A stretch of 64,000 nt of DNA, from contig UQFH01000002.1 of the NCBI GenBank assembly GCA_900540185.1, forward strand, positions 16,817-80,816, read 5' to 3'. Numbering within the stretch: the stretch's first letter is position 1; each line of letters opens with the position of its first letter. The position numbers and the translations under genes are program-made. Source of the stretch: an uncultured Eubacteriales bacterium (GTDB taxonomy: Bacteria; Bacillota; Clostridia; Tissierellales; Peptoniphilaceae). Shown piece after piece: positions 3,645-59,876 of the stretch. The notes under the pieces were generated by a model, which was given only the letters and a program-made list of their open reading frames with translations, made no database searches and was not told the origin of the DNA.

Positions 3645-4490
3645 ATGACTAAAAGAATTTTATCATTAGCATTGGCAGTAGTTATGGCTGCAACAACTTT
3701 CTCATTCAGTGCATTTGCTGCTGACAAGAAAGAAGAAAAGAAAGCTGAAACAAAAAAAGTAAGTTTATTTGAAAAATACAACAAAAACGTTTCAGACGCT
3801 TTCTCAAATGCTGCAAAAGCAAACAAAGGCGACTCAGCTTTGACACAAAAACAAAAAGAATTCATCAGCCTTTCAGTCGGAATCGCTGTAAAATGCGACG
3901 CTTGCACAAAGACACACTCAAAACTCGCAGTTCAAGCAGGTGCTACAATGGAAGAACTTGCTGAAATGGTTGGCGTTTGCGTTATGATGGGTGGCGGACC
4001 TTCAACTGCTTTCGGAAGAGTTGCTCTTGAAACTGCAAAAGAAGCAGGCGCAAAAGAAGCTGAAAAGAAAATCGAATTAAAACCGATTACAGAATTTAAA
4101 GGCGAACTTGGCGACGACATCGTTAGCGTTAATAAACCTGAATTTGCTAAAAAATATTCATTAATCGGCAAAAACGTTATGAGAGACGGATATCTCACAG
4201 TTAAAGAAAAAGAACTTATCTCTTTAGCAATCGCTATCGCTGTAAGATGTGACGGATGCATGAAATACCACGGAGCACAATGTGCAAGAGTGGGTGTTAC
4301 AGAAGCTGAACTCGCTGACCTCGTAGCATGCTGCAAAATCATGGGTGGCGGACCTGCATCACCTGCATCAAGAACAGCTATTCAAGTTTACCAAGACGAA
4401 AAAGCTGTAATGGAAAAAGAAGCTAAAGAAGCAAAAGAAGCTAAAACAGAAAAGAAAGCTGAAACAAAAACAGAAAAGAAAACAAAATAA
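3645..4490 (+). CDS. secreted protein with two tandem carboxymuconolactone decarboxylase (AhpD-like) domains and Lys/Glu-rich linker and tail
   Basis: GGAGG RBS. Signal peptide MTKRILSLALAVVMAATTFSFSAFA. Two copies of the core motif (VKCDACTKTHS...CVMMGGGP and VRCDGCMKYHG...CKIMGGGP). KEEKK-type repeats at both ends. Confidence 0.8.
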   Translation: MTKRILSLALAVVMAATTFSFSAFAADKKEEKKAETKKVSLFEKYNKNVSDAFSNAAKANKGDSALTQKQKEFISLSVGIAVKCDACTKTHSKLAVQAGATMEELAEMVGVCVMMGGGPSTAFGRVALETAKEAGAKEAEKKIELKPITEFKGELGDDIVSVNKPEFAKKYSLIGKNVMRDGYLTVKEKELISLAIAIAVRCDGCMKYHGAQCARVGVTEAELADLVACCKIMGGGPASPASRTAIQVYQDEKAVMEKEAKEAKEAKTEKKAETKTEKKTK

Positions 4491-4507
4491 GAATTTGTTT
4501 TGAAAGG

Positions 4508-4533
4508 TGCCTGGAGAGAGGCGCCTTTTTTAT
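4508..4533 (+). terminator. rho-independent terminator of the CMD gene
   Basis: GGTGCC-TGGAGAGA-GGCGCC hairpin followed by TTTTTT. Confidence 0.6.
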
Positions 4534-5200
4534 TTGCGGTTATTTTATTTGCGGTTATTTTCGCTATAAATGCTTGATTCAATATTTTAGTCGCTGCGAC
4601 GTACTTACCAGTACGCCTCACTCCTAAAATATTTCATCTAAGCGTTTCTCATCGAAAATTCCTCGCAAATAACGGTGTATGTAGGGGAAAAATTTTTTGA
4701 TTTTTCAAAACTTACCGTTGTTAATATTTTTATATATTATATGTACACATAAATGGGCGGCGCAAACGTTATAGCCCTAACCCGTGCTTTTTGATTTGAC
4801 AAAATCAAAAACACGATGGTAGGACTTATACAAAGACGTCCGACGACATTTCGACGAACAGGAGAAATGAGTCGTTGACGTCGATTGTGCATGCGCCGTT
4901 ACGTTCTGGGAAGCACACAATGATGTGTAGAATCATATGTCGTAAAAGTTATACGCGAAGATAAAATTTTAAGGTTAGAATAAATTACTGTGAATGAATT
5001 ATTGTTGGATGTGATTACGTTATTTGTAGCGTCGGGCTACGTCTCGACGCATGAGATATAGATAAACACACGCGTATAAACAATTTAAAAATAGATTCAA
5101 ATAAACGCCGTCTGTAACGGCGACCAGTTTTTTTATCCATCGAGCAGAAATCTGTGATTTCGCCTGGAGATGAGATAAAAAGGTGTATCGCCGCCAATAA
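4531..5200. repeat. intergenic repeat cluster A (units R1, R4 with a nested insert, R3, R2a)
   Basis: R1 at 4531-4674, R4 at 4754-4940, R3 at 4985-5100 and R2 at 5104-5198. Each is matched by copies at other loci in the window (see findings). Confidence 0.85.
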
Positions 5201-5347
5201 GGAAAAGTTGTGGGGTTGTAATTTACATAAATGCCATAACCGGCGCCGGGAAATTTTTATTCCTAGCGTCGTAACATATGTCGGTCGCTATGTCGCGCAT
5301 TAGAATGTATAAAATATAAATAAATGTATTTTACATAAAAGCCCATG

Positions 5348-5376
5348 TTGACAAACAAAAAACATGGGCATATAAT
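5348..5376 (+). promoter_or_regulatory. canonical sigma-A promoter of tRNA-Val
   Basis: TTGACA, 17 nt, TATAAT. The -35 box lies inside a 9-bp inverted repeat GCCCATGTT...AACATGGGC. Confidence 0.65.
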
Positions 5377-5391
5377 ATGTTTATAAGATAT

Positions 5392-5468
5392 GGACTGTTA
5401 GCTCAGTTGGTTAGAGCATTGCATTCACATTGCAGGGGTCACAAGTTCGAGTCCTGTACAGTCCACCA
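5392..5468 (+). tRNA. tRNA-Val (anticodon CAC, read by eye)
   Basis: Cloverleaf: acceptor GGACTGT/ACAGTCC, D-arm GCTC...GAGC, anticodon loop TTCACAT, T-loop TTCGAGT, 3' CCA encoded. Confidence 0.8.
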
Positions 5469-5474
5469 ATTTGC

Positions 5475-5526
5475 GTTCCGGTTGGAGCGCTTTTTTTATG
5501 TACGGCGGAAGATCCGCCTTTTTATT
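5475..5526 (+). terminator. tandem hairpin terminators after the tRNA
   Basis: GCGTTCC-GGTT-GGAGCGC followed by T7, then GGCGG-AAGAT-CCGCC followed by T5. Confidence 0.55.
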
Positions 5527-5533
5527 TGTATAT

Positions 5534-6460
5534 TTATTTTATTTCGTTCATTATTTCTCTAAGTTTTTTTAAATTGTTTTCCTCATATGGGCTGTGGCCG
5601 GCGGCGTCAGTTATATACAGTTCGACGTTTTCAAGTTTTTGTGCGAGGCAATATGCGCCGATCGGGCGACAGTCGATGTCGTATCTTCCGTGCACAATAT
5701 ATGTTTTTATATTTTTTATTTTGTCGGCGTTTTCCAAGATGTAGTTATCCGTCGGGAAGAAGTTTTTGTTTTTAAAGTAAAAACATTCGTAAAATGCAAG
5801 GCTCATTTTTTGCGCGGTATATTCGTTGTTCACTTCTCCGGGAAGGAGTGTCACAAGTCCGTCTTCCCAATTTGCCCATTTTATTGCGGCGGCTTTCTTT
5901 TTTTCTTCGTCGTCGGACATAAATATTTCGTAGTATGAGTCCACGATTTTATCCCTTTTGTTTTCCGGAAGAAAGTTTTTGTATTCTTCGAAAAGCTCCG
6001 GGAAGTAGTAGCTTGCGCCTTCCTCATAGAGCCAATTAACATCTTCCTCTCTACCCAAAAATATTCCTCTTAAAACCAGATTTTCCACTCTTTCCGGGTG
6101 CGCGATTGCATAGAGAAGGGCGAGCGTTGAGCCGTAGCTTCCGCCGAAAACTGTCCATTTTTTTATGCCGAAATGCTCTCTAATTTTTTCCATGTCCTCA
6201 ACCGTTTGAAAAGGGGTGACATTTTTTGTTTCAAGAAACGGTGTAGATTCACCGGTTCCCCTTTGGTCGAAAAGTATGACGCGGTGATTATCGTTAAAAA
6301 ATTCGAGCGATTTTTCGCCGACCGATCCTCCCGGTCCACCGTGCAAAAAAATCACGGGTGCGCCGTTTTTGTTTCCGCAATCCAAAACGTTAAGGGTGTG
6401 CGTTTCATCAACTTTCAGTTTTATTTTTTCATTAATTTTCATTTCTCCCTCCGTCAACAA
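5534..6460 (-). CDS. pip: proline iminopeptidase (prolyl aminopeptidase, S33 alpha/beta hydrolase)
   Basis: 308 aa. Contains HGGPGG and the GGSYGSTLAL nucleophile elbow. Family-level match. Confidence 0.85.
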   Translation of the reverse strand: MLTEGEMKINEKIKLKVDETHTLNVLDCGNKNGAPVIFLHGGPGGSVGEKSLEFFNDNHRVILFDQRGTGESTPFLETKNVTPFQTVEDMEKIREHFGIKKWTVFGGSYGSTLALLYAIAHPERVENLVLRGIFLGREEDVNWLYEEGASYYFPELFEEYKNFLPENKRDKIVDSYYEIFMSDDEEKKKAAAIKWANWEDGLVTLLPGEVNNEYTAQKMSLAFYECFYFKNKNFFPTDNYILENADKIKNIKTYIVHGRYDIDCRPIGAYCLAQKLENVELYITDAAGHSPYEENNLKKLREIMNEIK

Positions 6461-7352
6461 AATCTATATTTCTTCTTTTGAGTTCTTTCTGAATTGAGCT
6501 TATGACTGCGCATTTGTGTTTTGTCCAGTCAGGCACGATGAGATTTTCCCGAACCGGGTCGCCGGTGATTCGGTGGTAAACTATGTCGCGCGGCAAAATT
6601 TCCATTCCGTCACAAACAAGATTTACATATTCCTCTTCGGTGAGTACTGGAAACGGTTTTTCGGTGTAGAGTTTTCCGAGTCTAGAGTGTTTGTCGACGT
6701 AAAGACTGTGAATTTTCACGCCGAACGGATGAAGCTCTTTTACATATTCAAATGTTTCAAGCATGTCCTCTCTCGTTTCGGTCGGAAGTCCCAAAATCAT
6801 GTGCACGATGATTTTAAATCCGTCGTCAATCAGCTCGCGCGCTTTTTTGTCAAAGTATTCGTGGCTGTATCCGCGATTTATAAAATCCAAAGTTTTTTCG
6901 TGGATGGATTGCATGCCGAGCTCAATCCAAGTTTCCGTTTTTTTATCATACTCTTTTAGAAGTTCGATTCTTTCAAGGTCCATACAGTCCGCTCTCGTCG
7001 CAATGTCGAGTCCCACGATGTCTTTGTCAGAAAGCGCTTCGTCGTAGATTTTTCGAAGCTTCGGCACAGGTTTATATGTGTTTGTAAAGTTTTGAAAATA
7101 CGCGATGTATTTTTCGACTTTCCACTTTCCGCCGTACATAGTTTTTTGGTGCGCGATTTGCTCAGAAATAGTTTTTGCGCCGATGCAACCTGCAAATTCA
7201 CCGCTTCCTCTTTCGGAGCAGTAGATGCATCCCAAGTTGCTCAAAGTTCCGTCTCTGTTTGGACATGTGAAGCCACCGTCAAGACAGACTTTTCCGACTT
7301 TAACTCCAAATTTATTTTTTAAATAGCTGCTTAGTGAATAATATCTTTCCAT
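6432..7352 (-). CDS. TIGR01212-family radical SAM protein
   Basis: 306 aa. N-terminal Cys cluster CPNRDGTLSNLGCIYCSE. Overlaps the pip start by 29 nt. Confidence 0.8.
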   Translation of the reverse strand: MERYYSLSSYLKNKFGVKVGKVCLDGGFTCPNRDGTLSNLGCIYCSERGSGEFAGCIGAKTISEQIAHQKTMYGGKWKVEKYIAYFQNFTNTYKPVPKLRKIYDEALSDKDIVGLDIATRADCMDLERIELLKEYDKKTETWIELGMQSIHEKTLDFINRGYSHEYFDKKARELIDDGFKIIVHMILGLPTETREDMLETFEYVKELHPFGVKIHSLYVDKHSRLGKLYTEKPFPVLTEEEYVNLVCDGMEILPRDIVYHRITGDPVRENLIVPDWTKHKCAVISSIQKELKRRNIDFVDGGRNEN

Positions 7353-7532
7353 ATTTAAATTATACTACAAAGTTTTAAATATTCATAATTCGAATAAATT
7401 TTTATAAATAGCTGTTATTTTTTAGAAAATGGGGGTATAATATAAATAGTTAGCACTCACCGATAGAGATTGCTAATAATGAAACTCTAATTACTGAAAT
7501 TAGAGTTTATCTATGATATGGAGGTAGTTATT

Positions 7533-9462
<1,930 letters not shown>

Positions 9463-9469
9463 TAAAATA

Positions 9470-9508
9470 AAATGTGTAGCATACCATGTGCTGCACTTTT
9501 TTATTGCA
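9470..9508 (+). terminator. groESL terminator
   Basis: GTGTAGCA-TACCATG-TGCTGCAC hairpin followed by TTTTTTATT. Confidence 0.5.
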
Positions 9509-9511
9509 ACA

Positions 9512-9545
9512 AAAAAACGTGCAGATTTTACAATTTGCACGTTTA
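9512..9545 (-). terminator. purC terminator
   Basis: Minus strand: AACGTGCA-AATTGTAAAATC-TGCACGTT followed by TTTTTTT. Confidence 0.6.
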
Positions 9546-9554
9546 TATTACATA

Positions 9555-10241
9555 CTATTTTACGTCTTCCAAAAGGATTTTTTCGAGTTTCAAAGGTTCG
9601 ATATATTCGTCGCCTTTGTATGCACGCATGTTTCCGCCTGAAATTTCGTCGATGAGTGCGACTTTACCGTCGATCATACCGAATTCGAATTTAATATCGT
9701 AAAGTTCGAGACCCTTTTTATCGAGTTCTTCTTTAACAAATTCGCCGATATGTTTTGCAAGATCAACAAGTTCTTCGTATTCGTCGCCTGTCATAATTCC
9801 GAGCATTTCAAGAGCGTCCTTTGTGATTAGAGGATCGTCTCTGTCGTCATCCTTTAGAGTGATTTCAACATATGAAGGAAGCTTCATTCCCGATTCGGCA
9901 TATTGTCCGTAACGTCTGATGAATGAGCCGACAGCTCTGTATCTTACAATAACTTCAACACCGTTTCCGAAAACTTTTGCCTTCTTTACAACAGCTTCAT
10001 TTTTTTCAGTGTCTGCTGAAACGAAGTGTGTGTTTAAGCCCTTTTCGTTAAGTTTTTCATAGAAGAATTTTGTAAGCATGCAAGCTGAGTGTCCTGCGCC
10101 TTCCATAGTGAGTCCGACATGATTTTGACCCGGGTCGAAAACTCCGTCCTTTCCGGTTACATCGTCTTTAAACTTGAGTAAAACTTCTTTGTCGTTTAAT
10201 TCATAAACGTCTTTTGTTTTTCCTTGGTATAATTTTTTCAA
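9555..10241 (-). CDS. purC: phosphoribosylaminoimidazole-succinocarboxamide synthase (SAICAR synthetase)
   Basis: 228 aa beginning MKKLYQGKTKDVYELND, which is PurC-typical. Confidence 0.9.
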   Translation of the reverse strand: MKKLYQGKTKDVYELNDKEVLLKFKDDVTGKDGVFDPGQNHVGLTMEGAGHSACMLTKFFYEKLNEKGLNTHFVSADTEKNEAVVKKAKVFGNGVEVIVRYRAVGSFIRRYGQYAESGMKLPSYVEITLKDDDRDDPLITKDALEMLGIMTGDEYEELVDLAKHIGEFVKEELDKKGLELYDIKFEFGMIDGKVALIDEISGGNMRAYKGDEYIEPLKLEKILLEDVK

Positions 10242-10363
10242 AGTAAACCCCCCAATCCACTCATTATTTTATACCTAAGCGGCGCGTGTTGTCAAGTGAT
10301 TCAAGATATATTTTCGAATATATGTAAAATTTGTGGTATAATTAAATTAAAAAGGAGAGAAAA

Positions 10364-11548
10364 ATGGATATAAAAGAATTGCGCCGCGAGTTTCACAAAA
10401 TCCCTGAAACAGGCTTTAAAGAATATAAAACTACAAGAAAAATTATTTCTTATTTAAAAAACTTTGAAAACGGAAAACTTATTTTCGGAAAAAGGCTTTA
10501 TGGCAAATCCGAAGTTTCAAGCGATGCGGATATCGACGAGGGTTACACCGGAGCTTTGATAGAGTTCGGACACGCACCGTTTTTTATGTTCCGCTCGGAC
10601 ATCGACGCCCTTCCGGTTTTGGAATCGACGAGCGATGAACATGTTCCGAAAAATTTAGGATTTCGCTCGGAAATCGACGGAAATATGCACGCCTGCGGTC
10701 ACGACGGACACATTTCAATCGCTTTAAAACTTGCGGAAATATTCAATAAAGAGCCAAATCTTTATTCGGGAAGGGGTGTAAGAATTTTATTTCAACCCGC
10801 GGAAGAAGGAGTGCAAGGCGCTGCAAAAATTCCGGAGTTTGTGACAAAAGACGTTGACAATATGATTGGATACCACATAGGACTCGGCGAGCCCGAAGGC
10901 TTTATAGGAGTCGGAAGCACGAATTTTCTTGGAGTCAAAAAACTTCTCGTAAAATTTTTCGGAAAAGCCGCACACGCCGCAAACAATCCGGAAAATGGAA
11001 TTTCAGCACTAAATATGGCGCTCGCATTTATAAATTTAAATCGAACTTTGATTGAAGATTCAAAGAAAAAGCGCGTGATGAATATCGGGATGATTCACGG
11101 AGGAAATGCGCTAAACATCATAATGGATGAAATAACTCTCGGCATCGACCTTCGCGCAATCGACAACGATGTGCTGGACGAAATGTACGAAACGATTTTG
11201 AAAACTTCGAGAAATATTTCCGAGGCGGTCGGTGGAAGTTCGACTGTTGAGATTATCGGGGAAGCTTGGGGGTATGTTGAGGAAGACGGAGAGCTCACCG
11301 AAAAATTGTCGAAAAATTTAAGAGATGCGGGATTTAAAACGACCATTAATCCGAATTTCGGCGCAAGCGAAGACGTGACGAAATATATTCTGGATGTTAA
11401 AGAAAACGGCGGAAAAGCAATTCACCTTCTTTTCGGCGCCGACCTTGCGGGGAGTCACCATAGCTCGACCTTTGACTTCGACGACGAGAATCTCGAAAAA
11501 TATTTCAATGCAACACTTTTAACATATGAATCCATGCTCAAAAATTAA
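10364..11548 (+). CDS. M20-family amidohydrolase (N-acyl-amino acid amidohydrolase-like)
   Basis: 394 aa. HACGHDGH metal-binding motif and M20D architecture. Confidence 0.8.
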   Translation: MDIKELRREFHKIPETGFKEYKTTRKIISYLKNFENGKLIFGKRLYGKSEVSSDADIDEGYTGALIEFGHAPFFMFRSDIDALPVLESTSDEHVPKNLGFRSEIDGNMHACGHDGHISIALKLAEIFNKEPNLYSGRGVRILFQPAEEGVQGAAKIPEFVTKDVDNMIGYHIGLGEPEGFIGVGSTNFLGVKKLLVKFFGKAAHAANNPENGISALNMALAFINLNRTLIEDSKKKRVMNIGMIHGGNALNIIMDEITLGIDLRAIDNDVLDEMYETILKTSRNISEAVGGSSTVEIIGEAWGYVEEDGELTEKLSKNLRDAGFKTTINPNFGASEDVTKYILDVKENGGKAIHLLFGADLAGSHHSSTFDFDDENLEKYFNATLLTYESMLKN

Positions 11549-11568
11549 GCGGTTATGCCGCTTTTTTG
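11549..11568 (+). terminator. terminator
   Basis: GCGGTTATGCCGC followed by TTTTTTG. Confidence 0.5.
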
Positions 11569-11660
11569 TGAGATTTTTTTCGACACTTATTTTTCAACTC
11601 GAGAGACCTGTGTTTGAAAAAAACACCGTTTTAATATAAAATAGAAGAGGAGGAATTTAT

Positions 11661-12641
11661 ATGATTTATGTTATAAATAAGAGCGTTGATCCTTCTTTTA
11701 ATCACGCGCTTGAAGAATATTTTTTAAAGGATACTAGCGAGTCGGTTTTTATGATTTGGCAAAATGAGCCGACGGTTTTGATCGGGAGAAATCAAAATTT
11801 GGAGCTTGAGATAAATACAGATTTTACAAAAGCACATGATATGCACGTTGTGAGAAGACTTTCGGGCGGCGGCACGGTTTATTGCGATTTGAACAACTGT
11901 CAATACACTTTTATCACCAATCGCGACGACAAGAATGAAAATCTTTTTAAAAGTTTTGCGCACCCCGTTGTTTTGGCTCTAAAAAAATTGGGGCTCGATG
12001 CGGATTTTACGGGTAGAAATGACATAATGATTGGCGACAAAAAAGTTTCCGGGAATGCTCAGTACCGCTACAAGGACAGAATCATTCACCACGGAACTCT
12101 TCTTTTTGATGCGGATATGGAGCTTTTGTCGGGTTCGATGAAGGCGCGAGAAATAAAATTTATAGATAAAAATGTTCATTCGCATCGTGCGCATGTGGGT
12201 CTTATAAAAAATTACGTGGACATGGATGTGCATGAATTTATAGATTATATTGCAAAAAATATTGTGGATTATCATAATATTTCTGAAATTCGCGAGCCGT
12301 CAAATGATGAGCTCGAGGGTTTGAAGAAGTATTTGTCGGACTTTCCGGATTTTAACAAAACGGGATATGACAAGGAGCATTCGAGAAAATATATGGCGAA
12401 GAAATATCCGTTCGGACTTGTTGAGTACGGGCTCGACGACGAGGACGGAAAGATAAAAAAACTGAAGATTATGGGAGACTTCTTTTTGAATAATGAATTG
12501 GAGCCGTTTTTGAGTTCGATTCGGGGTATAGATATAGAGTCGATTGAAGACGAGCTCAAATTTGATATCGGAGATTTTATAATCGGCATGACAAATGACG
12601 ATTTTATTTCCGATTTGAAGCATTTATATAGAGGAGAATAG
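11661..12641 (+). CDS. lplA: lipoate-protein ligase A
   Basis: 326 aa. RRLSGGGTVYCD... is typical of LplA/BPL_LplA_LipB. Confidence 0.85.
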   Translation: MIYVINKSVDPSFNHALEEYFLKDTSESVFMIWQNEPTVLIGRNQNLELEINTDFTKAHDMHVVRRLSGGGTVYCDLNNCQYTFITNRDDKNENLFKSFAHPVVLALKKLGLDADFTGRNDIMIGDKKVSGNAQYRYKDRIIHHGTLLFDADMELLSGSMKAREIKFIDKNVHSHRAHVGLIKNYVDMDVHEFIDYIAKNIVDYHNISEIREPSNDELEGLKKYLSDFPDFNKTGYDKEHSRKYMAKKYPFGLVEYGLDDEDGKIKKLKIMGDFFLNNELEPFLSSIRGIDIESIEDELKFDIGDFIIGMTNDDFISDLKHLYRGE

Positions 12642-12643
12642 TT

Positions 12644-13504
12644 ATGAGTGAGAAAAAAACTAAGCATTTAAAAAAGCCGGAGTGGATTAAGGTCAAACTT
12701 CAGGGCAACCAAAATTCCAACACGGTTGAACATACACTTTTAAATTATAATTTAAACACTGTTTGCTCGGAGGCGAATTGTCCGAACAAGATGGAGTGCT
12801 ACGCTGCGAGAACTGCGACATTTATGATTCTCGGGAAAAATTGTACGAGAAATTGCAGATTTTGCAATGTTACTACAAAGAAGCCGGAGCCTGTGAACAA
12901 GTTTGAACCGCAGGAAGTTGCTTTTGCGGTACAGAAACTCGGACTTAAACATGCGGTCGTGACGAGTGTCGACAGAGACGATTTGGAGGATTACGGCGCG
13001 GAGCATTTCAAGCGCGTGTGCGAGGAGATAAAAAAAGTAAATCCGGGCACGACAGTCGAGCTTTTGATTCCGGATATGCACGCAGTGCACGAACATTTGG
13101 ACACGATTTTCAGCGCAAAGCCGGACATCATAAACCACAATGTTGAAGTTGTGCCGGAGTTTTTTGAGGAAATTTGTCCGCAGTCAAATATGGACTGGAG
13201 TCTCGAGGTTTTGAGATATGCAAAGGAAAAGGGATTTATCACGAAGTCTGGCATGATGGTCGGATTCGGCGAAACCGAAGAGATGGTTGTAAATCTCATG
13301 AAAATGCTTCGAAGCGTTGACTGCGACATGCTCACAATCGGGCAATATCTCCAACCTTCGAGAAAACACGCCGACGTTGTGGAATATGTAACGCCGGAGC
13401 AATTTGAAAGATACAAAGAGCTCGGACTTGAACTCGGATTTAAGAGCGTTTCGAGCGGACCTTTCGTGCGAAGCAGCTACCACGCGCAAATGTTGGAAGG
13501 ATAG
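12644..13504 (+). CDS. lipA: lipoyl synthase
   Basis: CPNKMECY plus CTRNCRFCNV radical-SAM clusters. Confidence 0.92.
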   Translation: MSEKKTKHLKKPEWIKVKLQGNQNSNTVEHTLLNYNLNTVCSEANCPNKMECYAARTATFMILGKNCTRNCRFCNVTTKKPEPVNKFEPQEVAFAVQKLGLKHAVVTSVDRDDLEDYGAEHFKRVCEEIKKVNPGTTVELLIPDMHAVHEHLDTIFSAKPDIINHNVEVVPEFFEEICPQSNMDWSLEVLRYAKEKGFITKSGMMVGFGETEEMVVNLMKMLRSVDCDMLTIGQYLQPSRKHADVVEYVTPEQFERYKELGLELGFKSVSSGPFVRSSYHAQMLEG

Positions 13505-13505
13505 A

Positions 13506-14327
13506 ATGAAAAGAGTTAGAATTTTTTTGAATGAATACCCGTCGTCAATCGAAGTTGCAAACGAACTCGAGGAGCGCTTTCGCTCGCTCGGCGTTGAGGC
13601 GGAACAGGTCTATATAAAATCGCTCGACAACAAGGGCGGAGATTTTGACGTAAACATTGTTGTTGGGGGCGACGGTACATTTTTGCAATCGGTGAGACTG
13701 AGCGAATTTCATTCGGCGCCGTTTATCGGAATAAACACCGGCGGACTTGGATTTTTCCAGGAAATCGGCGTTGACGAAATTCCGACGCTTGTGCATATGC
13801 TGAAAAAAGAAGAATTTATTACCGACGAAATGAAACTCATAAAATCCGTCGCAACCACAAGTGACGGCAGCGAACTCTCGTTTTATGCGATAAACGAAAT
13901 TCTTATAAAGGGAATAAATTCGAAAGTCATCCACATGGACGTCTATGTCGAAAGAAATTTCCTGCAAAAATTTTCAGGAGACGGCATCATCATCTCGACA
14001 TCCGTCGGCTCGACCGCATACAACTTCTCGGTCGGCGGTGCGATTGTGCACCCGAGCATCGAAACAATGCAAATGAGTCCGCTCGCACCGATTTCAAGTG
14101 CGGCATATCGTTCGCTTCTAAATCCGATCGTCATGCCGGGAAATTACACCATCGACATCTACCCTGAAACGAAATACGAAAAATCCGTCTTGATAGTCGA
14201 AGACGGCGTTGAAAACTTTGTCAGAAACATTCGAAAAATCGAAACCACAATCAGCAACACTTTCGTGAACAGACTGCATTTGGATAAGGATATTTATTGG
14301 AAGAACTTAAAAGACAAATTCATTTAG
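13506..14327 (+). CDS. nadK: NAD(+) kinase
   Basis: GGDGTFL and NEI/DGxxxSTxxGSTAYS motifs. The real start is probably the ATG at 13506, directly after the lipA stop. The ORF-track start at 13404 overlaps lipA. Confidence 0.85.
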   Translation: MKRVRIFLNEYPSSIEVANELEERFRSLGVEAEQVYIKSLDNKGGDFDVNIVVGGDGTFLQSVRLSEFHSAPFIGINTGGLGFFQEIGVDEIPTLVHMLKKEEFITDEMKLIKSVATTSDGSELSFYAINEILIKGINSKVIHMDVYVERNFLQKFSGDGIIISTSVGSTAYNFSVGGAIVHPSIETMQMSPLAPISSAAYRSLLNPIVMPGNYTIDIYPETKYEKSVLIVEDGVENFVRNIRKIETTISNTFVNRLHLDKDIYWKNLKDKFI

Positions 14328-14332
14328 AAAAA

Positions 14333-14790
14333 TTTGCGGTCTATTTTGCGATAAACGACTGATCTCGTGTTTTAGTCGTTGCGGCATATTTACCAATATG
14401 CCTCACTCCAAAAACACTCAATCTAGCCGTTTCTCATCAAAATATCCTCGCAAATGGGTGGGGATTAATTGTAGAAAATGGAAAACACAGCACGTAACGG
14501 CGACCGGTTTTTTATCCATCGAGCAGAAATCTATGATTTCGTCGTGAAATGAGATAAAAAAGTGTATCGCCGCCAATATGGAGAATGAAATGGATAGATT
14601 TTGAAACCGCGAAAGGATGGTTGAAAATAAAAATCGTAAATATGTTATACGTCAACATTAGCTCCATGTGAAAATAAATTAATGTATATGGTATATTGTT
14701 GTATGGGATTACGCTCTTTGTAGCGTCGCATTACATTGCGACGCATGAGATATAGACAAACAGACGTGTATGTGCAATAAAATTTTGCAA
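14333..14790. repeat. intergenic repeat cluster B (diverged R1, R2a, R3)
   Basis: R1 at 14333-14455, R2a at 14490-14578 and R3 at 14672-14790 match cluster A units. Confidence 0.8.
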
Positions 14791-14876
14791 TTAAATAAAA
14801 GCAGCACGTGGGAGTATCGCCGCAAAAAATATTTACAATCAAAATTTATGTTTAATACAAATTTTCAGGAGGAATT

Positions 14877-16265
14877 ATGAAAGAAAAAGAATTGATTTAC
14901 AGAGACGAAGTTGACTCTTTAGGTGTTGTTAAGGTTCAAAGTGAGAATCTTTGGGGTGCTGTAACTGAAAGAGGAAGAAAGATGTATGCGGTGACGGACG
15001 AGACTGTCGATATGGAAATTGTAAGAGCGGTCGCAATGATAAAAAAAGCGGCGGCTATCGCAAACGAAAAGCTCGGCGTTTTGAGCACGGAAAAGCGTGA
15101 CAGAATAAGTCTTGCGGTTGACCAAATTCTCACGGGAAAATTTGACGACAATTTTCCGCTTTCCGTATATCAAACGGGTTCCGGAACTGCAACGAACATG
15201 AATGTGAATGAGGTTATAAAAAATATAAATAATTTGGGACTCATAGGCGACGACTCTGTTTCGCTTCATCCGAATGACGATGTGAACAAGTCGCAAAGCA
15301 CAAACTGTGTTTTTCCGACGGCGATAAATGTTGCGGTAATACTAAATTTGAAAAAGGGGCTTATTCCGGCGCTCGAAAATCTTGTGACAACTTTGGACAG
15401 AAAAATTGAAGAGTTTGACGGCGTGATAAAAATCGGAAGAACTCACCTTGAAGATGCAACGCCGATTTTGATTTCAGATGAATTTATAGCATATCGCGAC
15501 ACATTTATGAGAGACATCGAAAAAATCAAGGAGCAAATTGAATATTTGAGCCATGTGCCTCTTGGAGGTACCGCTGTGGGCACGGGACTAAATACGCCGC
15601 CGGGATATGACAAGCTTGCGGTGGAAGCTCTTGGCGAAATTGCCGGAATAGATCTGATTCCTATGAAAGACAAATTTATGGGGCTTTCAATGAAAAATGA
15701 CATTGCAACCGCATATGGCGCTATCGCGTCTCTGTCGATGAACTTGTTTAAATTTTTAAATGATATACGCCTGATGCAGTCGGGTCCAAGAGCCGGTTTT
15801 TCCGAAATTATTATCCCTGCAAATGAACCGGGAAGTTCGATAATGCCGGGAAAAGTAAATCCGACTCAAATTGAAATGCTCACACAAATCGCATTGAGAG
15901 TCTATGGTGCAAATGCGACAATTCTATTTGCCTCAGGTCAAGGAAACTTTGAGCTGAACGTCTACATGCCTCTCATTGCAAACCAATTTATAAAAACGGC
16001 TCGGGAACTCGCAAACGGAATTGAAAGTTTCAACGAAAATTGCCTCAAAGGTATAAAATTGAACAGAGAAAAGATAGAAAAATACCTTGAAGAAAGCTTG
16101 ATGCTCGTGACTGCGCTAAATCCACACATCGGCTACATCAACAGCGCGAAAATCGCAAAAAATGCATATGAAAAGGGAATAACACTCAAACAATCTGCAC
16201 TGGAGTTGGAACTGCTTACGGAAGAGGAGTTTGATATTATAGTCGATCCCACAAAAATGGTTTAA
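14877..16265 (+). CDS. class II fumarate hydratase / aspartate ammonia-lyase family enzyme
   Basis: 462 aa. GSSIMPGKVNPTQIE signature. A fumarase-versus-aspartase assignment is not secure from sequence alone. Confidence 0.8.
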   Translation: MKEKELIYRDEVDSLGVVKVQSENLWGAVTERGRKMYAVTDETVDMEIVRAVAMIKKAAAIANEKLGVLSTEKRDRISLAVDQILTGKFDDNFPLSVYQTGSGTATNMNVNEVIKNINNLGLIGDDSVSLHPNDDVNKSQSTNCVFPTAINVAVILNLKKGLIPALENLVTTLDRKIEEFDGVIKIGRTHLEDATPILISDEFIAYRDTFMRDIEKIKEQIEYLSHVPLGGTAVGTGLNTPPGYDKLAVEALGEIAGIDLIPMKDKFMGLSMKNDIATAYGAIASLSMNLFKFLNDIRLMQSGPRAGFSEIIIPANEPGSSIMPGKVNPTQIEMLTQIALRVYGANATILFASGQGNFELNVYMPLIANQFIKTARELANGIESFNENCLKGIKLNREKIEKYLEESLMLVTALNPHIGYINSAKIAKNAYEKGITLKQSALELELLTEEEFDIIVDPTKMV

Positions 16266-16270
16266 AATTA

Positions 16271-16905
16271 ATTTGCGCGCTATTTTGCGATAAACGGTTG
16301 ATTCAATATTTCAGTCGCTGCGACGTACTTGCCAGTACGCCTCACTCCTAAAATATTTCATCTAACCGTTTCTCATCAAAATATCATCGCAAATAACAGT
16401 GTGTTTTAATTGTATAAAATGGCAAACACAGCCGTAGCGGGACGGTTCTGCGAATCCTCCTGCCTAAACACCTGCGCAATCAAAAATTAAGTTTACGGCG
16501 CATGTCATCAAAATATCCTCGCAAATTATTGGATAGTATTTGCGGTTTGCAGTCAACGTCTGCGACTCATTTCTCCTATTCGTCGAAATGTCGCCGGACG
16601 TCTTTGCGGAAGACCTACCATCGTGTTTTTGATTTGAAAAATCAAAAAGCACGGGTTAGGGCTATCTTTTCGCGATAAACGCTTGATTCATATTTTAGTC
16701 GCTGCGACGTACCTATCAGTACGCCTCACTCCTAAAATATTTCATCTAAGCGTTTCTCATCGAAAATTCCACGCAAATAACAGTGTGTATAAATTGTATA
16801 AAATTACAAACGCCATCCGTAACGGCGACCGGTTTTTCGACGCACGAAATAGAAATCTTTGATTTTGTAATTGAGTGCAGAGAAAAGCGTATCGCCGCTA
16901 TAATG
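16271..16905. repeat. intergenic repeat cluster C (R1, R2c plus R1b tail, inverted R4 inner piece, 5'-truncated R1, R2b)
   Basis: R1 at 16271-16398 and 16664-16782. 16536-16665 is the reverse complement of 4770-4885. R2b at 16809-16903. Confidence 0.85.
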
Positions 16906-17200
16906 GAGAATTGTTTGGGGTTTTTTATTTCATCAAAAATCAAACGACAAAACCGGTGCAATGACACCGCTCTTCCTTACGTTGTAACGTATTTCGTCAC
17001 GCTACGCCGTGCTTGCGAATGAAGACAAGTCAATAATTTAAACTTTTCATTCATTTTTCAAAATATTTTCTCGATTTTTTTATTTTCAAATTATATCATT
17101 CGTTATTTTCGTTGTGTGTTGGGTAATAATATTTGTGAAGGGTTAAAAATGTTGTGCGAATAGTTTGCACAGTTTTTAATTTATTTAAGGAGGTATTAAT

Positions 17201-19816: not shown

Positions 19817-20241
19817 AAAGTGGGGAAACCCACTTTTTTTATTTTATTTAAAAAAATTTTTTGAAAAAAATTGATAGAAAAATTTGCGTACATATTTTTG
19901 AAAAAAATCGCGTCGACTTATTTCATTTTTTTAATTGTGAGAAACTGCTTTGTCAAAACTAATTGTAGAAAATATTGAAATTAATTTTTGTATCAATTAT
20001 TTTTATTTGACTTTATAAGAAGTTGCATATTTATTTTCAGAGTTTTAAAAAGTTTGAGAAATATTTACGCAACACTTGTTTATTTAGCGTAACAATAAAT
20101 TATTTAATATTTTACACAGTTTACACAATTGAGAAAATGGAGATTGAATATTATCAAATCAAGTTTGACAAAGAAAATCATATATCGTATAATAATCGAC
20201 GGTAATGAAAATCATTATCAAATTATAAAAAGGAGAAAACT

Positions 20242-23200
20242 ATGAGACAAAGATTATTGAGTTTGTTCACTGCGGGCGCAATGATTTTCAGTTCAATGGT
20301 CGGACTGACGACGAATGTTCGTGCAAGTGAAAACGTGGAAACGGTCAACCTCTTTGAGGGCGAGACCGGTGTTGAGACACATGGAAACGGTCTAATGATG
20401 ATCGACAATGTGTCAGAGAAGTGGAGCGGGAATTCTGCTGATGCAGATGTTCAGCCGGTTAGCTATGTTTTAACCGAAAAGGATTTCGGAGAGAAAACAG
20501 TTTATATTGTGGAGCTCAGCTCTGAGGAGATGAGAGGTGCAGTTAAGGAAGCACTTTTAAAGCTACCGCAAACGGAAATTAAGTACGAGTATAATATTTT
20601 ATTTAATGGGCTTGCTATTGAGACCGGAGATGGATTTTTGGACTATATTCTTCACATTGATGGAGTAAAAAGTGTTGAAAGAGCCGAAAAAGTTATTCCA
20701 CTCATGGAAAATGCAAGAGAACTTACTCATGTAAATGAAGCAAGTGACTATTTAAAAGAAATCGGTGCGGATGAAAATTCAATCGGTAGAGCATTCGACG
20801 GAAGAGGAATGCTTATTGCAAATATCGACAGCGGAATGGATGCAAGACACAAGGATATGCGTCTTGATCCGGAAGCTGAAAAAGTTGCAAAGATAAAACA
20901 ACCGACCGAGTTCGGTATGTCGATGAAGATTCCGCACGGATTCAATTATATGGACGGCGGCAAGGATACTGTCGACAATTATCCTGACGGCAGTTTTTAT
21001 CATGACCCGCACGGAATGCACATCGGTGGGATTTTAGCGGCAAATGCTACAGCTGAAGATTTGAAAAATCACAGAGGTATAAGAGGCATTGCGCCTAATG
21101 CACAAGTGTTGTCATATAAGATTTACACATATACAAGCGACGCTTTTGCAGGAGACGAAACGATGTTCCATGCCTTTGAAGACTGTATCAAACATGATGT
21201 TGACGTTATTTCTATCAGCTCAGGTTTCCATGGAACCGGTTTAAAGGGCGAGAAGTATTGGGGTGCAATCAGAACGCTTCGTGAAAAAGGAATTCCGGTT
21301 TGCGTTGCAACAGGTAACTATGCGACTGCTTCATCGGACTCTTCATGGGACAGATATGCTAACAACGCTCTTAACATGACCGATACAGGTAATGTTACAA
21401 GAACAGCTGCACATGAAGACGCAATTGCAGTAGGTTCTGCAAGAAATACAAAAATCAGATTTAATGCTGTTAAGATTGGCGACGAGGAGTTTAAGTACTC
21501 ACAAATAGGGGCATTCTTTGATAAGAATAAATTTAAAGCCGGCGATTACAGTTTTGTTTATCTTGGAAAATGTCAAGACGAAGACATACTTGGTAAAGAC
21601 TTAGAGGGCAAAATCGTTGTTATGGATAGAATTTTCTCAACTGATATGAAGTATGCTTTTAAGAAAGTTCGCGATAAAGGTGCTGTCGGTGTAATTGTTG
21701 TAAACACAGTTTCATACTACAACCGAGACGACTGGGAAGCAATTCCGGCTATGGGCTATGAAGAAGATGAGAAGACTAAGGTACAAGTATTTTCTATTTC
21801 AGGAGAAGACGGGGTTAAGCTTTGGTCGATGATTAAATCATACGACGGGGATACAGATTATAAGTCTGACAGAGAATATCGTGTTGATATGAACAAGTAC
21901 AATAAATTAAAGCCGACTGTAGGACAAGAAAATAAACTTTTACTTGACTTCAATGTAGACGATATAATTCTTGATGAAAAAAGAAGCGTCCCGGCAGGTT
22001 CAACAAGCTGGGGACCGAGAAACGACCTTCTCTTGAAACCTGACGTTTCAGCTCCTGGTAAAAATATTTATTCAACGCTGAATGTCGTAGGAAATGATCC
22101 GACGAAGGATTCGAGATACGGAAATATGAGCGGAACATCGATGGCAACACCGGTTGTTTCGGCTTCGACGGTTCTTATAAGACCGAGACTTAAAGAGCTT
22201 GTGGAAACAAAAGTATTAAAAGATATGGGCATAGACTTGGTCTCACTTACTAAGATTATGCTACAAAACACAGCATCGCCGATGCTTGATGAAACGACAG
22301 AAAACGACGGAAAATATTTATTTGCCTCACCGAGACAACAAGGTGCGGGACTTATAAATGTTCTAAAAGCATCAAAGAACAATGTTATTGTTTCATCAAA
22401 AGCTTTGGGAAGCGATGGAGAAACGAACAGCTACGGCTCTGTAAGTTTGAGAGAAATAAAATCAGGTGAAAAAACATTTACTATTACACTGTCAAACACA
22501 TCTGACAAAGATATTAAATTCACAGTGAGCGCATCGCCTGTTACAACAGACGGCAATATGCCGAAACTTAAACTCGATGAATTAAACAGTACCGAAGATA
22601 AGGGTAAGACAGTTGCAGAAATTCACCCGGAAATTGTTAACGGAGCAGAGATAAAGTTTGATACTGAAGAAATTACAGTTCCTGCAAACTCAAACTTCAA
22701 TTTGTCCGCAACAATGAAGACGGGAGATGCACACAATCAATTCGTCGAAAGCTTTATTAAATTTGAATCAAAAGATGAAGAAGCAAATCCTAGCCTAAGC
22801 ATGCCGGTTATGGGCTTTGCAGGCGATTGGAACAACGAACCGATTATAGATAAGTGGGCATGGGAAGAAGGCTCGAAGTCGGCTGAAGTTGTCGGATATG
22901 ATGAGAATGGAAAACCGAAAAGACCTGGAACATTGAACTCAGGTGTAGGTGGAGATCACGACATAGATGACTTCCACCCGGCAGGAGTGATACAAAACAC
23001 TAAAGATGGAAATCCGAAACTAAAACAAGATCCGGAACTATTTAGTTTGAACAATAATATAAGCTTGAATAATTCCGTAAGTAGAAGTGATGTAGTAAAA
23101 GATTTTGAAGCAATTCCTAATGTTACGCCGAGCCCACTTATTTTGAGATCTGCAAGCAATGCAAAAATCTCAATTGTTGATGCAACGAAGACTAGAGATC

Positions 23201-37114: not shown

Positions 37115-37140
37115 AAGGCGTTTAATGCGCCTTTTTTATT
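37115..37140 (+). terminator. fprA terminator
   Basis: AAGGCG-TTTAATG-CGCCTT followed by TTTTT, immediately followed by an R1b repeat head. Confidence 0.6.
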
Positions 37141-37840
37141 TGCGGTCTATTTTGCGACCTGCTTGCAAACGTCAATTATTTGATTGCTCGGAGTGCACTT
37201 GAGCACACCTGCGCAATCAAAAATTGAGTATGCGGCGCATCTCATCAAAATATCCTCGCAAACTGATTTTATATCTGCGGTCTATATGTGAATTATTATA
37301 TAAAAGAAGAAAACGCCGCCGTAGCGGGACGGCACTGTGTGTCCTCCCGCAAAAAAACCTCACTCCTAAAATATTTCATCTAAGCGTTTCTCATCGAAAA
37401 TTCCTAGCAAATGGATTTTATAATTGCGCGTAATTAATTGTAGAAACTTGAAAACACTGCCGTAGCGGGACGGTTCTGCGAATCCTCCCGCCTAAACACC
37501 TGCGCGATCAAAAATTGAGTTTGCGGCGCATCTCATCAAAATATCCTCGCAAACTGATTTTATATTTACGGGATTTTCGCGATAAAGTTTTGAGGCTGTA
37601 TTATTTTTTGTACGCAGAACGTAGCGGCTGGCATACGTTACAACGTGAAAAAGAAATCTTTGATTTCGTTTTTGAGCGAGAAGTAACGACGTCCTGCCGC
37701 AAAAAGCCTCACTCCTAAAATATTTCATCTAAGCGTTTCTCATCGAAAATTCCTCGCAAATAACGGCGAAGATTAATTGTAGAAAATTGCAAACGCCGTC
37801 CGTAACGATGGCACTTTGTGTCCCGCTGCCAATAGGGAGA
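37137..37840. repeat. intergenic repeat cluster D (R1b, R2c plus R1 tail, R2c plus R1b tail, R1 tail, R2c)
   Basis: R1b at 37137-37265. R2c heads at 37301-37350, 37452-37494 and 37790-37838. R1 and R1b tails at 37358-37413, 37496-37555 and 37708-37764. Confidence 0.85.
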
Positions 37841-39129: not shown

Positions 39130-39172
39130 ATATAAATTATTGCACGTGATGGGCGTGCAATTTTTTTGTATT
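39056..39172 (+). repeat. left copy of a ~117-bp direct repeat (serpin 3' end plus terminator)
   Basis: Near-identical to 40765-40883. Confidence 0.9.
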
Positions 39173-39239
39173 AATTATAAAATTTCAGACAATACTTTAA
39201 ATCTCATACTATATCATCGAATAAACAATATAAAAATAT

Positions 39240-39248: not shown

Positions 39249-39280
39249 AAGTATAATATTTGCCGGAGAGGAGGGATACT

Positions 39281-40699: not shown

Positions 40700-40764
40700 A
40701 GTTAATAAGAAAATCGACTTGTCGCATGAAAAACAAAATAGTCGGATAAAAGTAATGAACTCAT

Positions 40765-46034: not shown

Positions 46035-46580
46035 GGCATTTGCGGTCTAATTTGCAAATTATAAATTGTATAACGTTGCACGTCGTCCGTAACGGCGACC
46101 GGGTTTTCGACGTACGAAATAGAAATCTATCATTTCGTAATTGAGTGCAGAGAAAAGTGTATTGCCGTAAAAGAAGGGAATATTGGGATAAGATTTTGGT
46201 GAGATATTGTATTGACACAGCGTTGTTGGTGGTGATACATATTCCAAAAACTCAAAAATTGGCGGCGCAACGTAGTGCGCCGTTACGTTCTGGGAAACTC
46301 ACAATGATGTGTGAATTAATATATTGTAAAAATTTTATAAGGATTAAATATTACAATGTGTGTTTGAATATATTAATGTGTTCTGTTTATGTATAAAATG
46401 ACAAAATTTGTAGCGGCGGCTACGTCCCGATGCATGAGATATGGATAAACACACGTGTATAAACAATATAAAATAGATTCAAATAAACGCTGTCCGTAGC
46501 GGCGACCGGGTTTTTTATCCATCGAGCAGAAATCTATGATTTCGTCGTGAGATGAGATAAAAAGGCGTATCGCCGCCAAG
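46035..46580. repeat. intergenic repeat cluster E (R1 head, R2b, R4 lacking the inner piece, R3, R2a)
   Basis: R2b at 46078-46170, R4 at 46255-46320, R3 at 46400-46485 and R2a at 46488-46580. Confidence 0.85.
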
Positions 46581-46792
46581 AGGGGAAATACATAATACAT
46601 AGAATAAAATTTAAAACACGTAATGGTGGGTGGGGTTGAATATGGAATTGTGGTTTTCGATTCGATATTTTATATACACAACGTTGTTGGTGGTATTCTT
46701 AAGAAAATTTATATATTATTTAAATTAAATTACATATTGACTTTAACTTTATTAAAGAGTATACTTAACATAATTAAAGTAGGAGGAGCAAG

Positions 46793-52580: not shown

Positions 52581-52606
52581 AGGAACCGGCTTTCGCCGGT
52601 TCTTTT
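52581..52606 (+). terminator. terminator
   Basis: GAACCGGC-TTTC-GCCGGTTC followed by TTTTTT, then an R1 repeat. Confidence 0.65.
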
Positions 52607-52607
52607 T

Positions 52608-52945
52608 TATTTGCGGGCCTTTTCGCGATAAACGCTTGATTCAATATTTTAGTCGCTGCGACATATTTATCAATATGCCTCACTCCTAAAATATTTCATC
52701 GTAAGCGTTTCTCATCGAAAATTCCACGCAAATTACTTTTTTGCGTGTATTATATATGTAAAATATCTCAATGTGAAAATAAATTACTGTAAATGAATTA
52801 TTGTTGTATGCGGTTACGTTGTTTGTAGCGTCGGGCTACGTCCCGACGCATGAGATATAGATAAACATACGCGTATAAGCAATAAGGTAATACAAATTTT
52901 ACACGCCGTCTGTAACGGCGGGCACTGTGTGTCCCACCCCCCCTT
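52608..52945. repeat. intergenic repeat cluster F (R1, R3, R2c)
   Basis: R1 at 52608-52735, R3 at 52772-52890 and an R2c head at 52901-52945. Confidence 0.85.
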
Positions 52946-59750: not shown

Positions 59751-59876
59751 ATTTGCGGTCTATTTTGCGACCTGCTTGCAAACTTCAATTGTTTGATTGC
59801 TCGGAGTGCACTTAGCACACCTGCGCAATCAAAAATTGAGTTTACGGCGCATCTCATCAAAATAGCCCGCAAATAA
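59750..59876 (+). repeat. R1b repeat copy
   Basis: Near-identical to 37137-37265. Confidence 0.9.

Follow-up and report, generated by a model that had tools for sequence, protein, structure and literature searches.

Introduction

Among described intergenic repeats, repetitive extragenic palindromic (REP) sequences and bacterial interspersed mosaic elements (BIMEs) offer the best comparison for the elements analysed here. REPs are defined by a GTAG tag followed by a GC-rich imperfect palindrome, and are found at the 3′ ends of open reading frames (ORFs), between unidirectional or convergent genes (PMC3733652). Our comparison set was that of E. coli, Pseudomonas and the Stenotrophomonas SMAGs (Di Nocera et al. 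2013, PMC3733652), a REP survey which spans 8 phyla without mention of Firmicutes. The REP-linked groups 2 and 3 of the REP-associated tyrosine transposases (RAYTs) have been analysed in Proteobacteria (Escherichia, Pseudomonas), and no strong overall link with host taxonomy emerged. We report here on a family of intergenic repeats in a stretch of 64,000 nt from an uncultured bacterium of the Peptoniphilaceae (contig UQFH01000002.1, positions 16,817 to 80,816), referred to below as the window. The family is dispersed, mosaic, strictly polar and anchored to gene 3′ ends, and it combines REP-like stems with predicted terminator hairpins.

Other repeats invite comparison as well. For the enterobacterial repetitive intergenic consensus (ERIC, or intergenic repeat unit, IRU), orientation-dependent effects on mRNA stability have been reported. 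In a Firmicute, the Bacillus cereus group, the elements bcr1 to bcr18 are structured intergenic repeats of 100–400 nt, some of them co-transcribed and resembling miniature inverted-repeat transposable elements (MITEs). An earlier note on the window had sorted its repeats into unit types R1 to R4, and had likened them to MITEs derived from the insertion sequences (IS) IS200/IS605, to REP/BIME elements or to small structured RNAs.

Results

A family of repeats in seven intergenic regions

When intergenic regions were compared with the window by all-against-all BLASTN, dozens of matches were obtained (62–98% identity, E values of 1e-13 to 1e-70), which a repeat finder sorted into the families R1 to R4. 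Every unit previously listed was recovered by the two methods at or near its expected place (Table 1). The five full or near-full copies of R1 correspond to four intact units and a fifth one split in its head by another module, R5; the two isolated R1 3′ halves lie at 37358–37412 and 37707–37761. R3 is indeed present in four copies, and the ∼190-nt R4+R3 combination in two. Isolated 3′ arms of the R1b type were found at 16470–16526 and 37498–37554. The seven regions sum to 4,982 nt, or 7.8% of the window, so that the figure of about 5 kb (8%) put forward earlier holds as a length of regions and not as repeat content, which amounts to 3,815 nt (6.0%).

The genes flanking the arrays are unrelated housekeeping genes (CMD-family, NAD kinase, fumarase, redoxin, flavodiiron, serpin, TetR, S8 peptidases). 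The arrays are therefore not parts of one duplicated large segment. Recurrence beyond the window had been set beforehand as a test, and the units turned out to be widespread in the genomes of relatives and in metagenome contigs. The window, for which an identical contig exists in a human-gut metagenome, shares 84–95% nucleotide identity with Ezakiella coagulans DSM 20705 and with a Tissierellia metagenome-assembled genome (MAG), and these two were the only ones among 185,579 species-representative genomes to contain the R1 3′ half. A metagenome scan was performed with the conserved head and tail of R1 as only query, any body being allowed between them. It returned at least 117 stretches with this head/tail frame, on more than 100 contigs, and at least about 130 distinct R1/R1b sequences.

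The statement that the units are not any described element has stood: no match was found in Rfam, in plasmid, phage and IMG/VR collections or in the searchable literature, which yielded nothing on repeats of Ezakiella or Peptoniphilaceae. For Rfam this applies at the gathering score and even at E ≤ 1; matches at gathering score in the window were limited to 3 tRNAs and one fluoride riboswitch, none of them in repeats. Fragments of group II introns, considered since class C introns sit behind terminators, were discarded, as no Rfam intron matched at E ≤ 1.

Frames stand behind genes in a single orientation

The gene context of frames was deduced with a crude ORF caller applied to all loci, which yielded 141 full frames for which a gene was called 5′ of the frame. 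Ninety-nine of them lie at most 60 nt from the 3′ end of the upstream gene, 59 being within 15 nt of the stop codon, and co-orientation with this gene is complete (99/99). These 99 frames correspond to 43 distinct upstream genes (binomial p = 2e-13). The polarity rule is valid on both sides of convergent gene pairs, and orientation therefore tracks transcription, not replication; a replication-linked orientation was rejected, both orientations being found within a few hundred bp at such pairs. All 6 frames, 11 tails and 13 GTAG tags within the window repeat regions are on the + strand. So are the module copies generally, the exception being the R5 pair, whose copies have opposite orientations; an inverted E1 module also appears in the feature list.

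A recurrent T module, (A/G)GAA(C/T)CGG-N6-7-CCGGTTC-T5-9, is predicted to be a canonical intrinsic terminator and was found in 33 distinct contexts. It follows a frame tail by ∼15 nt, on the same strand, in 27 of the 33, and in none is it inverted relative to the adjacent tail. Its layout, with a GC stem, a short loop and a T-run, co-oriented with the upstream gene, fits that of a putative Rho-independent terminator. For frames within 15 nt of the stop codon, a predicted terminator was present at most 90 nt after the frame in 22 of 58 cases, and before it in none; for those 16–60 nt away, it stood before the frame in 26 of 39 cases and after it in 2. The first frame is therefore placed directly before or directly after the termination point. 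Arrays consist of units set head to tail, anchored at the 3′ end of a gene and co-oriented with it, the first frame starting either at a distance of 0–15 nt from the stop codon, in which case a terminator often follows it, or directly after the T-run of the gene's terminator. The stop codons that precede frames are ordinary (TAA 15, TAG 6, TGA 2), and recoding hairpins similar to selenocysteine (SECIS) or pyrrolysine (PYLIS) insertion elements were discarded on this basis. This rule of orientation and position, the terminator module, the GTAG tags described below and the inverted R5 copy are all absent from the earlier note.

The head/tail frame is one long hairpin with variable bodies

R1 and R1b each fold into one imperfect hairpin of ∼125 nt, with z-scores of −5.4 to −8 relative to shuffled sequences. 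The head of the frame reads ATTTGCGG-N-TTTTCGCGA (given also as ATTTGCGG…GCGA), and the tail TCTCATC-N10-11-CGCAAAT. At the base of the hairpin, ATTTGCGG-N-TATTTTGCGA of the head pairs with TCTCATC-AAAATA-NCCTCGCAAAT of the tail. The claim that the units have no terminal inverted repeats was thus mistaken, because head and tail of R1 and R1b are imperfect inverted repeats of each other; with inverted ends (ATTTGCGG..TATTTTGCGAT pairing with ATC.AAAATA..CGCAAAT) and a size of ∼125 nt, the units are in this respect like MITEs. Among 29 copies from three genomes, compensatory double changes maintain 17 of the 33 predicted pairs, and a 3-nt bulge in the tail is invariant.

The outer stem is common to R1 and R1b, and their inner sequences differ while both being fully paired. 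Contigs of more distant low-GC relatives supplied five further body types, in which head, tail and architecture are unchanged; in one of these five, the outermost stem has undergone a compensated change (TTTGTG/CACAAA). The frames that combine the same head, tail, bulge and architecture with unrelated bodies are L046:76-198, L050:671-793 (−), L110 (∼1828, −), L117:103-224 (−) and L148:5723 (+), that of L110 having a GTAG stem at its tip. These contigs have a GC content of 34–41% and little or no coding-sequence similarity to the Ezakiella loci, from which we conclude that the frame design predates the Ezakiella clade.

Hybrids between an R2 head and an R1 tail had been described as shuffled units. 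They do exist; they are not random shuffles, and represent the same head/tail frame with another insert. Their order is head, linker, GC-rich stem, AAAAAG, CCTCACTCC with the 3′ arm, and tail, as in 37564–37761. The 9-mer CCTCACTCC is invariant, mostly unpaired and located beside the tip hairpin, and it is found in every R1 3′ arm, including those of truncated and hybrid units. It is complementary to Shine-Dalgarno-like GGAG/GAGG.

GTAG-tagged stems resemble REPs

A GTAG tag, or in some copies GTAA, opens the modules R2, R2h, R2m and R3 as well as the long R5 form, and a GC-rich imperfect palindrome comes directly after it. The tag is GTAG in 55 of 76 R2 copies (72%) and GTAA in another 13 (89% together); GTAG was scored in 35/39 R2h (90%), 18/20 R2m (90%), 15/15 R3 and 6/6 long R5 copies. 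In contigs that carry the family, the four bases that directly precede GC stems on the 5′ side show a 13.7-fold enrichment in GTAG. Three of these modules are short repeated stems, namely R3 (GTAG-CGTCG-N10-CGACG; 15 distinct-context copies across loci), R2h (GTAG-CGGGACGG-N9-TCCTCCCG; 39 copies) and R2m (of the GCGGCTGG type; 20 copies). In REPs the stem measures 6–13 bp, and the tag is unpaired and conserved in >90% of members. Here, by eye, the final G of GTAG can pair with the C after the stem, so that an unpaired state holds for GTA only. R2 is an extended version of ∼100 nt, in which GTAG precedes one long palindrome whose inner stem exists in three covarying versions (by eye). The internal T-run of R2 was considered as a terminator and rejected, since within the R2 stem it is base-paired to an A-run located downstream. 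The two R5 copies of the window (4771–4887 and 16550–16665), in opposite orientations, are 89% identical.

With respect to neighbouring genes, 61 of 88 GTAG modules are between unidirectional genes, 26 between convergent genes and one between divergent genes. The GTAG modules thus resemble REPs in structure and position, and lack their usual arrangement in inverted dimers.

Arrays differ between close strains

Arrays vary among contigs of separate gut samples even where the encoded redoxin or TetR proteins are identical. The NADK-fumC spacer exists in the versions R1-R2-R3, R1-R2h, R1b-R1-R2 and R1-R2, and the fumC-redoxin spacer in five versions; at the TetR site, the presence of R3 is variable, as is that of an additional R1 placed behind the stop codon and ahead of the terminator. 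At the nucleotide level, the differences are explained by recombination within shared heads and tails. Examples are a chimeric head in L027, a tandem duplication of ∼310 nt in L028, and the swap of the segment between ATTTGCGG and CCTCACTCC. At the site of the split R1 frame 16538–16778, the head is uninterrupted in strains L021 and L027. We conclude that homologous recombination in shared heads and tails is the process by which units are added to arrays, removed from them and exchanged. Interrupted R1 copies of L052, L101 and L133 were inspected for an IS; the insert was another, nested frame.

Repeat regions also coincide with gene-order breakpoints between strains and species, and E. coagulans has other neighbours at several junctions. 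Bounded by repeat regions, a 12.4-kb segment of the window (4555–16995) lies between the CMD and redoxin genes; four strain contigs (L019, L020, L025, L026) and the MAG (L011) do not have it at this place. The segment contains the genes for tRNA-Val, a hydrolase, a radical SAM protein, GroEL, SAICAR synthetase, an M20 peptidase, lipoate ligase, LipA, NAD kinase and fumarase.

Orthologous R1 copies are well conserved. Identity between the window and E. coagulans is 87% for the R1 behind the NAD kinase gene and 93% for that at TetR, versus 65% and 60% respectively at four-fold synonymous sites (Fisher p = 5e-5 and 2e-7). This conservation reflects either purifying selection or homogenisation by gene conversion.

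Comparison with described repeats

Of the three options raised earlier, likeness to REP/BIME elements is the best supported, by the GTAG tag, the mosaic arrays and the placement at ORF 3′ ends. With REPs and BIMEs the family has in common the GTAG tag and GC-rich imperfect palindrome (R2, R2h, R3, long R5), subfamilies whose stems vary by compensating changes, clustered arrays of mosaic make-up in which linkers are conserved, a location at ORF 3′ ends (distance below 20 bp) where the flanking genes are unidirectional or convergent and hardly ever divergent, and a strain-variable copy content. It differs by its host, a Firmicute (Tissierellia), by the ability of the G of GTAG to pair, by the ∼100-nt stem of R2, and by arrays that are dominated by the head/tail frame, which has no GTAG, and that include predicted terminators.

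ERIC/IRU and YPAL repeats (Enterobacteria, Yersinia) are, like the frame, imperfect palindromes of ∼125 nt forming one long hairpin, in transcribed intergenic regions, with longer variants created by insertions. There is no sequence relationship, however, and ERICs are found in either orientation and with one body type, whereas frames follow the orientation of the upstream gene in 100% of cases and accept many unrelated bodies. The pneumococcal BOX elements (boxA-boxB(n)-boxC) and the Neisseria intergenic mosaic elements (NIMEs, RS units between dRS3 repeats) are comparable in their modularity, with conserved ends and variable middles, and in being stable intergenic stem-loops with no encoded transposase. 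Their sequences and hosts are different, the BOX order A-B-C is fixed, the dRS3 repeats of NIMEs are phage integration targets, and both lack an anchoring to stop codons and an embedded terminator module such as those described above. The bcr elements share with the family a Firmicute host and structured intergenic repeats; going by their descriptions, bcr1 has a TTTAT target duplication, as opposed to none here, and no mosaic head/tail frame is described for bcr. The family is undescribed, and is best filed in the known class of intergenic palindromic mosaics (REP/BIME, ERIC, BOX).

Table 1. Repeat modules and associated features of the window.
Position	Strand	Feature	Remarks
4502..4531	+	Gene-specific predicted intrinsic terminator of CMD-family gene (3645-4490)	T-run abuts repeat head; terminator scan
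4532..4546	+	Duplicated head fragment (ATTTGCGGTTATTTT)	By eye
4547..4670	+	R1 frame	Head ATTTGCGG..GCTA, 5′ arm, tip hairpin, CCTCACTCC (4616), 3′ arm, tail
4771..4887	+	R5 module	Opposite to copy 16550-16665
4892..4962	+	R4 module	Second copy 46276-46337
4963..5087	+	R3 module	GTAG 5026-5029, stem CGTCG/CGACG, conserved 3′ part
5088..5206	+	R2 module	GTAA 5114; long imperfect palindrome CGGCGACC..T-run / A-run..TCGCCG
5207..5391	+	Weakly repeated X2 module (65-69% identity)	tRNA-Val promoter 5348-5376 at 3′ end
14332..14455	+	R1 frame, 4 nt past TAG stop of NAD kinase gene	Orthologue E. coagulans L016:1791-1917 (87%)
14483..14585	+	R2 module	GTAA 14494
14668..14778	+	R3 module	GTAGCGTCGC at 14720
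16271..16394	+	R1 frame, 5 nt past TAA stop of fumarase gene	
16424..16526	+	Composite: R2h, then R1b 3′ arm and tail	GTAG 16434, short GC stem
16538..16778	+	R1 frame, head (ATTTGCGG / TCTTTTCGCGA) split by inverted R5	R5 at 16546-16665
16805..16911	+	R2c module	GTAA 16819; second covarying inner-stem version
16912..17036	+	X2-like module upstream of redoxin gene	BLASTN
37138..37263	+	R1b frame directly after T-run of flavodiiron gene's terminator	R1 head/tail, different fully paired body
37305..37412	+	Composite: R2h, then R1 3′ arm and tail	GTAG 37321
37450..37554	+	Composite: R2h, then R1b 3′ arm and tail	GTAG 37462
37564..37761	+	Full composite frame	Head (ATTTACGGGATTTTCGCGA), linker, GTAG stem 37621 (GCGGCTGG type, R2-like apical hairpin), AAAAAG, R1 3′ arm, tail
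37790..37840	+	Short R2-like stem ending array (CCGTAACGATGGCAC..GTCCCGCTGCCAAT)	By eye
46060..46180	+	R2c module	GTAA 46089
46178..46286	+	E1 module	Related to E2 and X1
46276..46470	+	R4 + R3, ∼190 nt	79% identical to 4892-5087
46470..46588	+	R2 module	GTAG 46496
46589..46700	+	E2 module	
52583..52608	+	T module, predicted terminator, one window copy	GAACCGG-CTTTCG-CCGGTTC-T6
52609..52733	+	R1 frame directly after T	Orthologue E. coagulans L008:7152-7282 (93%)
52762..52883	+	R3 module	GTAG 52825; site without R3 in L029, L032, L033
52912..53008	−	E1 module, inverted	
59751..59874	+	R1b frame between convergent genes (S8 peptidase 53310-59705 +; 59928-60572 −)	Nearly perfect palindrome
4616, 14401, 16340, 16724, 37358, 37707, 52678		CCTCACTCC	

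Other features of the window

The tRNA-Val gene (5392–5468) has a perfect sigma-70 consensus promoter, TTGACA-17-TATAAT, at 5348–5376. The CMD-family protein (3645–4490) has a long Lys/Glu-rich low-complexity C-terminal tail, with short direct repeats at 3729–3762 and 4425–4476. The fluoride riboswitch (Rfam RF01734, 46 bits; 44171–44229, +) lies directly upstream of a gene of the Na+/H+ exchanger family (44265–45440), not of crcB/eriC. A direct repeat (39048–39181 / 40756–40892, 93% and 77% identity) brackets a Schlafen AlbA_2 / HATPase_c_4 / helix-turn-helix (HTH) gene (39260–40699); it duplicates the 3′ end and terminator of the serpin gene, and looks like the trace of a single-gene insertion. 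Tandem 276-nt coding repeats (Big_2) at 49719–50700, in the gene for a C1 peptidase surface protein (47874–50732), are unrelated to the intergenic family. Finally, the upstream regions 19961–20256 and 47492–47779 are alike (63% over ∼300 nt) and may be a shared regulatory leader; the first precedes an S8 peptidase/SLH gene (20242–26721, one of two, ∼2,150 aa) and the second the C1 peptidase gene.

Discussion

We consider it probable that the arrays are a lineage-specific mosaic of hairpin units, similar to REP/BIME and ERIC repeats and tied to transcript 3′ ends; as to function, we infer the following. The arrays would be largely co-transcribed with the upstream gene, or would abut its termination point. 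Hairpins at the 3′ ends might then block 3′ exonucleases, or attract RNases, and in this way affect mRNA stability, and spare terminators could insulate the next gene. A one-way terminator together with an asymmetric hairpin base would leave only one orientation tolerable, which may be why a single orientation has survived. For the colonisation of new gene ends, our best guess is an enzyme of the HUH/RAYT type acting on single-stranded DNA (ssDNA), at the GTAG stems or at the bulged base, the alternative being ectopic gene conversion.

Several results weigh against this reading. An action of the arrays at the RNA level is pure inference. In all 26 R1 copies compared, folding is more stable for the antisense than for the sense strand, by 6–23 kcal/mol (typically ∼15), which is the opposite of what is expected for a selected sense-strand RNA hairpin. 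This asymmetry, however, comes from about three columns that are fixed, and one-sided changes of recent date favour neither strand (on the sense strand, 10 G.U versus 14 A.C). About 40% of first frames come after a terminator, so that many copies would be poorly transcribed. The high conservation of R1 orthologues could be due to concerted evolution rather than to selection. REP dimers are usually head-head or tail-tail, whereas the modules described here are mostly in tandem and co-oriented, with 83 of 99 GTAG modules in the same orientation as the neighbouring frame. A genome with REPs is expected to have a RAYT flanked by them, and none was detected in the sequences searched here: there is no transposase, recombinase or integrase among the ∼50 genes of the window, and approximate IS608 and IS200 queries and an HUH-motif regular expression uncovered no RAYT or Y1 transposase in 1.15 Mb of related loci, the only matches being below threshold and all with stop codons. 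The proposed IS200/IS605 origin hence has no direct support in these sequences. Lastly, none of the indels at the TetR, NADK and fumC sites shows a target-site duplication, though a 2-bp TA duplication, which would extend the palindrome, could have escaped notice.

The same two negative results bear on the next possibility, which we take seriously while judging it unlikely: that the units are selfish non-autonomous transposons, of the MITE or REPIN type, devoid of host function and surviving only where they are harmless, behind genes. Head and tail would be inverted repeats bound by a transposase, and the GTAG stems RAYT substrates. Terminal inverted repeats, the ∼125-nt size, the many subfamilies with common ends and differing interiors, the 43 colonised gene ends, the GTAG tag, the polymorphism of unit content among close strains and the occurrence of R5 as a discrete insert within a head are all in line with such elements. 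Yet no indel shows a target duplication, and neither a transposase nor a parent IS with the terminal repeats of the frame was found in the window and related loci; recombination in shared sequence also explains each event examined. Moreover, purifying removal alone does not explain how a near-palindromic element comes to be co-oriented in 99 cases out of 99, and orthologous copies, which exceed synonymous sites in conservation, have kept their places since the two species diverged.

A distinctly less likely proposal gives the hypothetical enzyme a larger role. The conserved, bulged base of the frame, and possibly the GTAG stems, would be sites at which an ssDNA recombinase or HUH enzyme of a Gram-positive lineage exchanges 3′-end cassettes. 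If true, the arrays would result from an active, structure-specific system that moves hairpin bodies, terminators and even segments of several genes from one gene end to another. In Firmicutes, it would be the equivalent of REP-RAYT or attC-IntI, and its sites would be of a new architecture.

That the units are independent small RNA genes, possibly antisense, with a promoter for each unit or array and acting in trans, perhaps through the anti-Shine-Dalgarno-like motif CCUCACUCC, seems improbable to us. It would account for the strong covariation, for the retention of an invariant unpaired CCTCACTCC in every truncated or hybrid unit and for the better folding of the antisense strand, and a weak promoter-like sequence, ATAACA-16-TAAAAT, does span tail and linker at 16393–16420 and 16777–16804. 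Against it, promoter-like matches in the modules do not exceed shuffled expectation, no unit is framed by a consistent pair of promoter and terminator of its own, and no Rfam family was hit even at the permissive threshold. The tight stop-codon anchoring, which places units in or beside mRNA 3′ ends, points to placement in cis, and the earlier suggestion of small structured RNAs does not hold for independent genes.

About equally improbable is a parallel with integron attC sites, in which a structure-specific recombinase would move the upstream gene or segment by acting on the ssDNA hairpin base. The frame has much of the look of an attC: an imperfect palindrome of similar length (∼125 nt), directly after the ORF at or near the stop codon and co-oriented with it, conserved ends around a variable paired centre, conserved extrahelical bases, an invariant bulge, and a bottom strand that is the more stable. 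Gene-order breakpoints fall at these sites, and the 12.4-kb segment is bounded by them. However, the core sites RYYYAAC and GTTRRRY are absent, the corresponding positions reading GATAAAC and GTTTCTC, and the window contains neither integrase or other recombinase gene nor cassette array. The intervening genes are not promoterless cassettes, being housekeeping genes with their own promoters and in both orientations, and homologous recombination between dispersed repeats explains the breakpoints equally well.

Type I toxin-antitoxin loci, which the E. coli LDR and QUAD/SIB repeats proved to be, or other small-protein genes hidden in the repeats deserve practically no credence, as a scan of all seven regions for small ORFs gave none that follows a Shine-Dalgarno sequence and is conserved between copies, nor any hydrophobic peptide, and as the modules are explained as hairpins.

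Repeats of the REP/BIME type have been characterised almost entirely in Proteobacteria, and this family of a Tissierellia gut anaerobe extends their range. Because arrays differ between strains with identical proteins, they could serve as strain-typing markers. They mark gene-order breakpoints, and are likely to break or mis-join metagenome assemblies. The family touches on three old questions, namely the reason why such repeats are found behind genes, the cause of their fixed orientation, and their mode of spread, by a dedicated enzyme or by recombination only, for which E. coagulans DSM 20705, being culturable, offers a compact test case.

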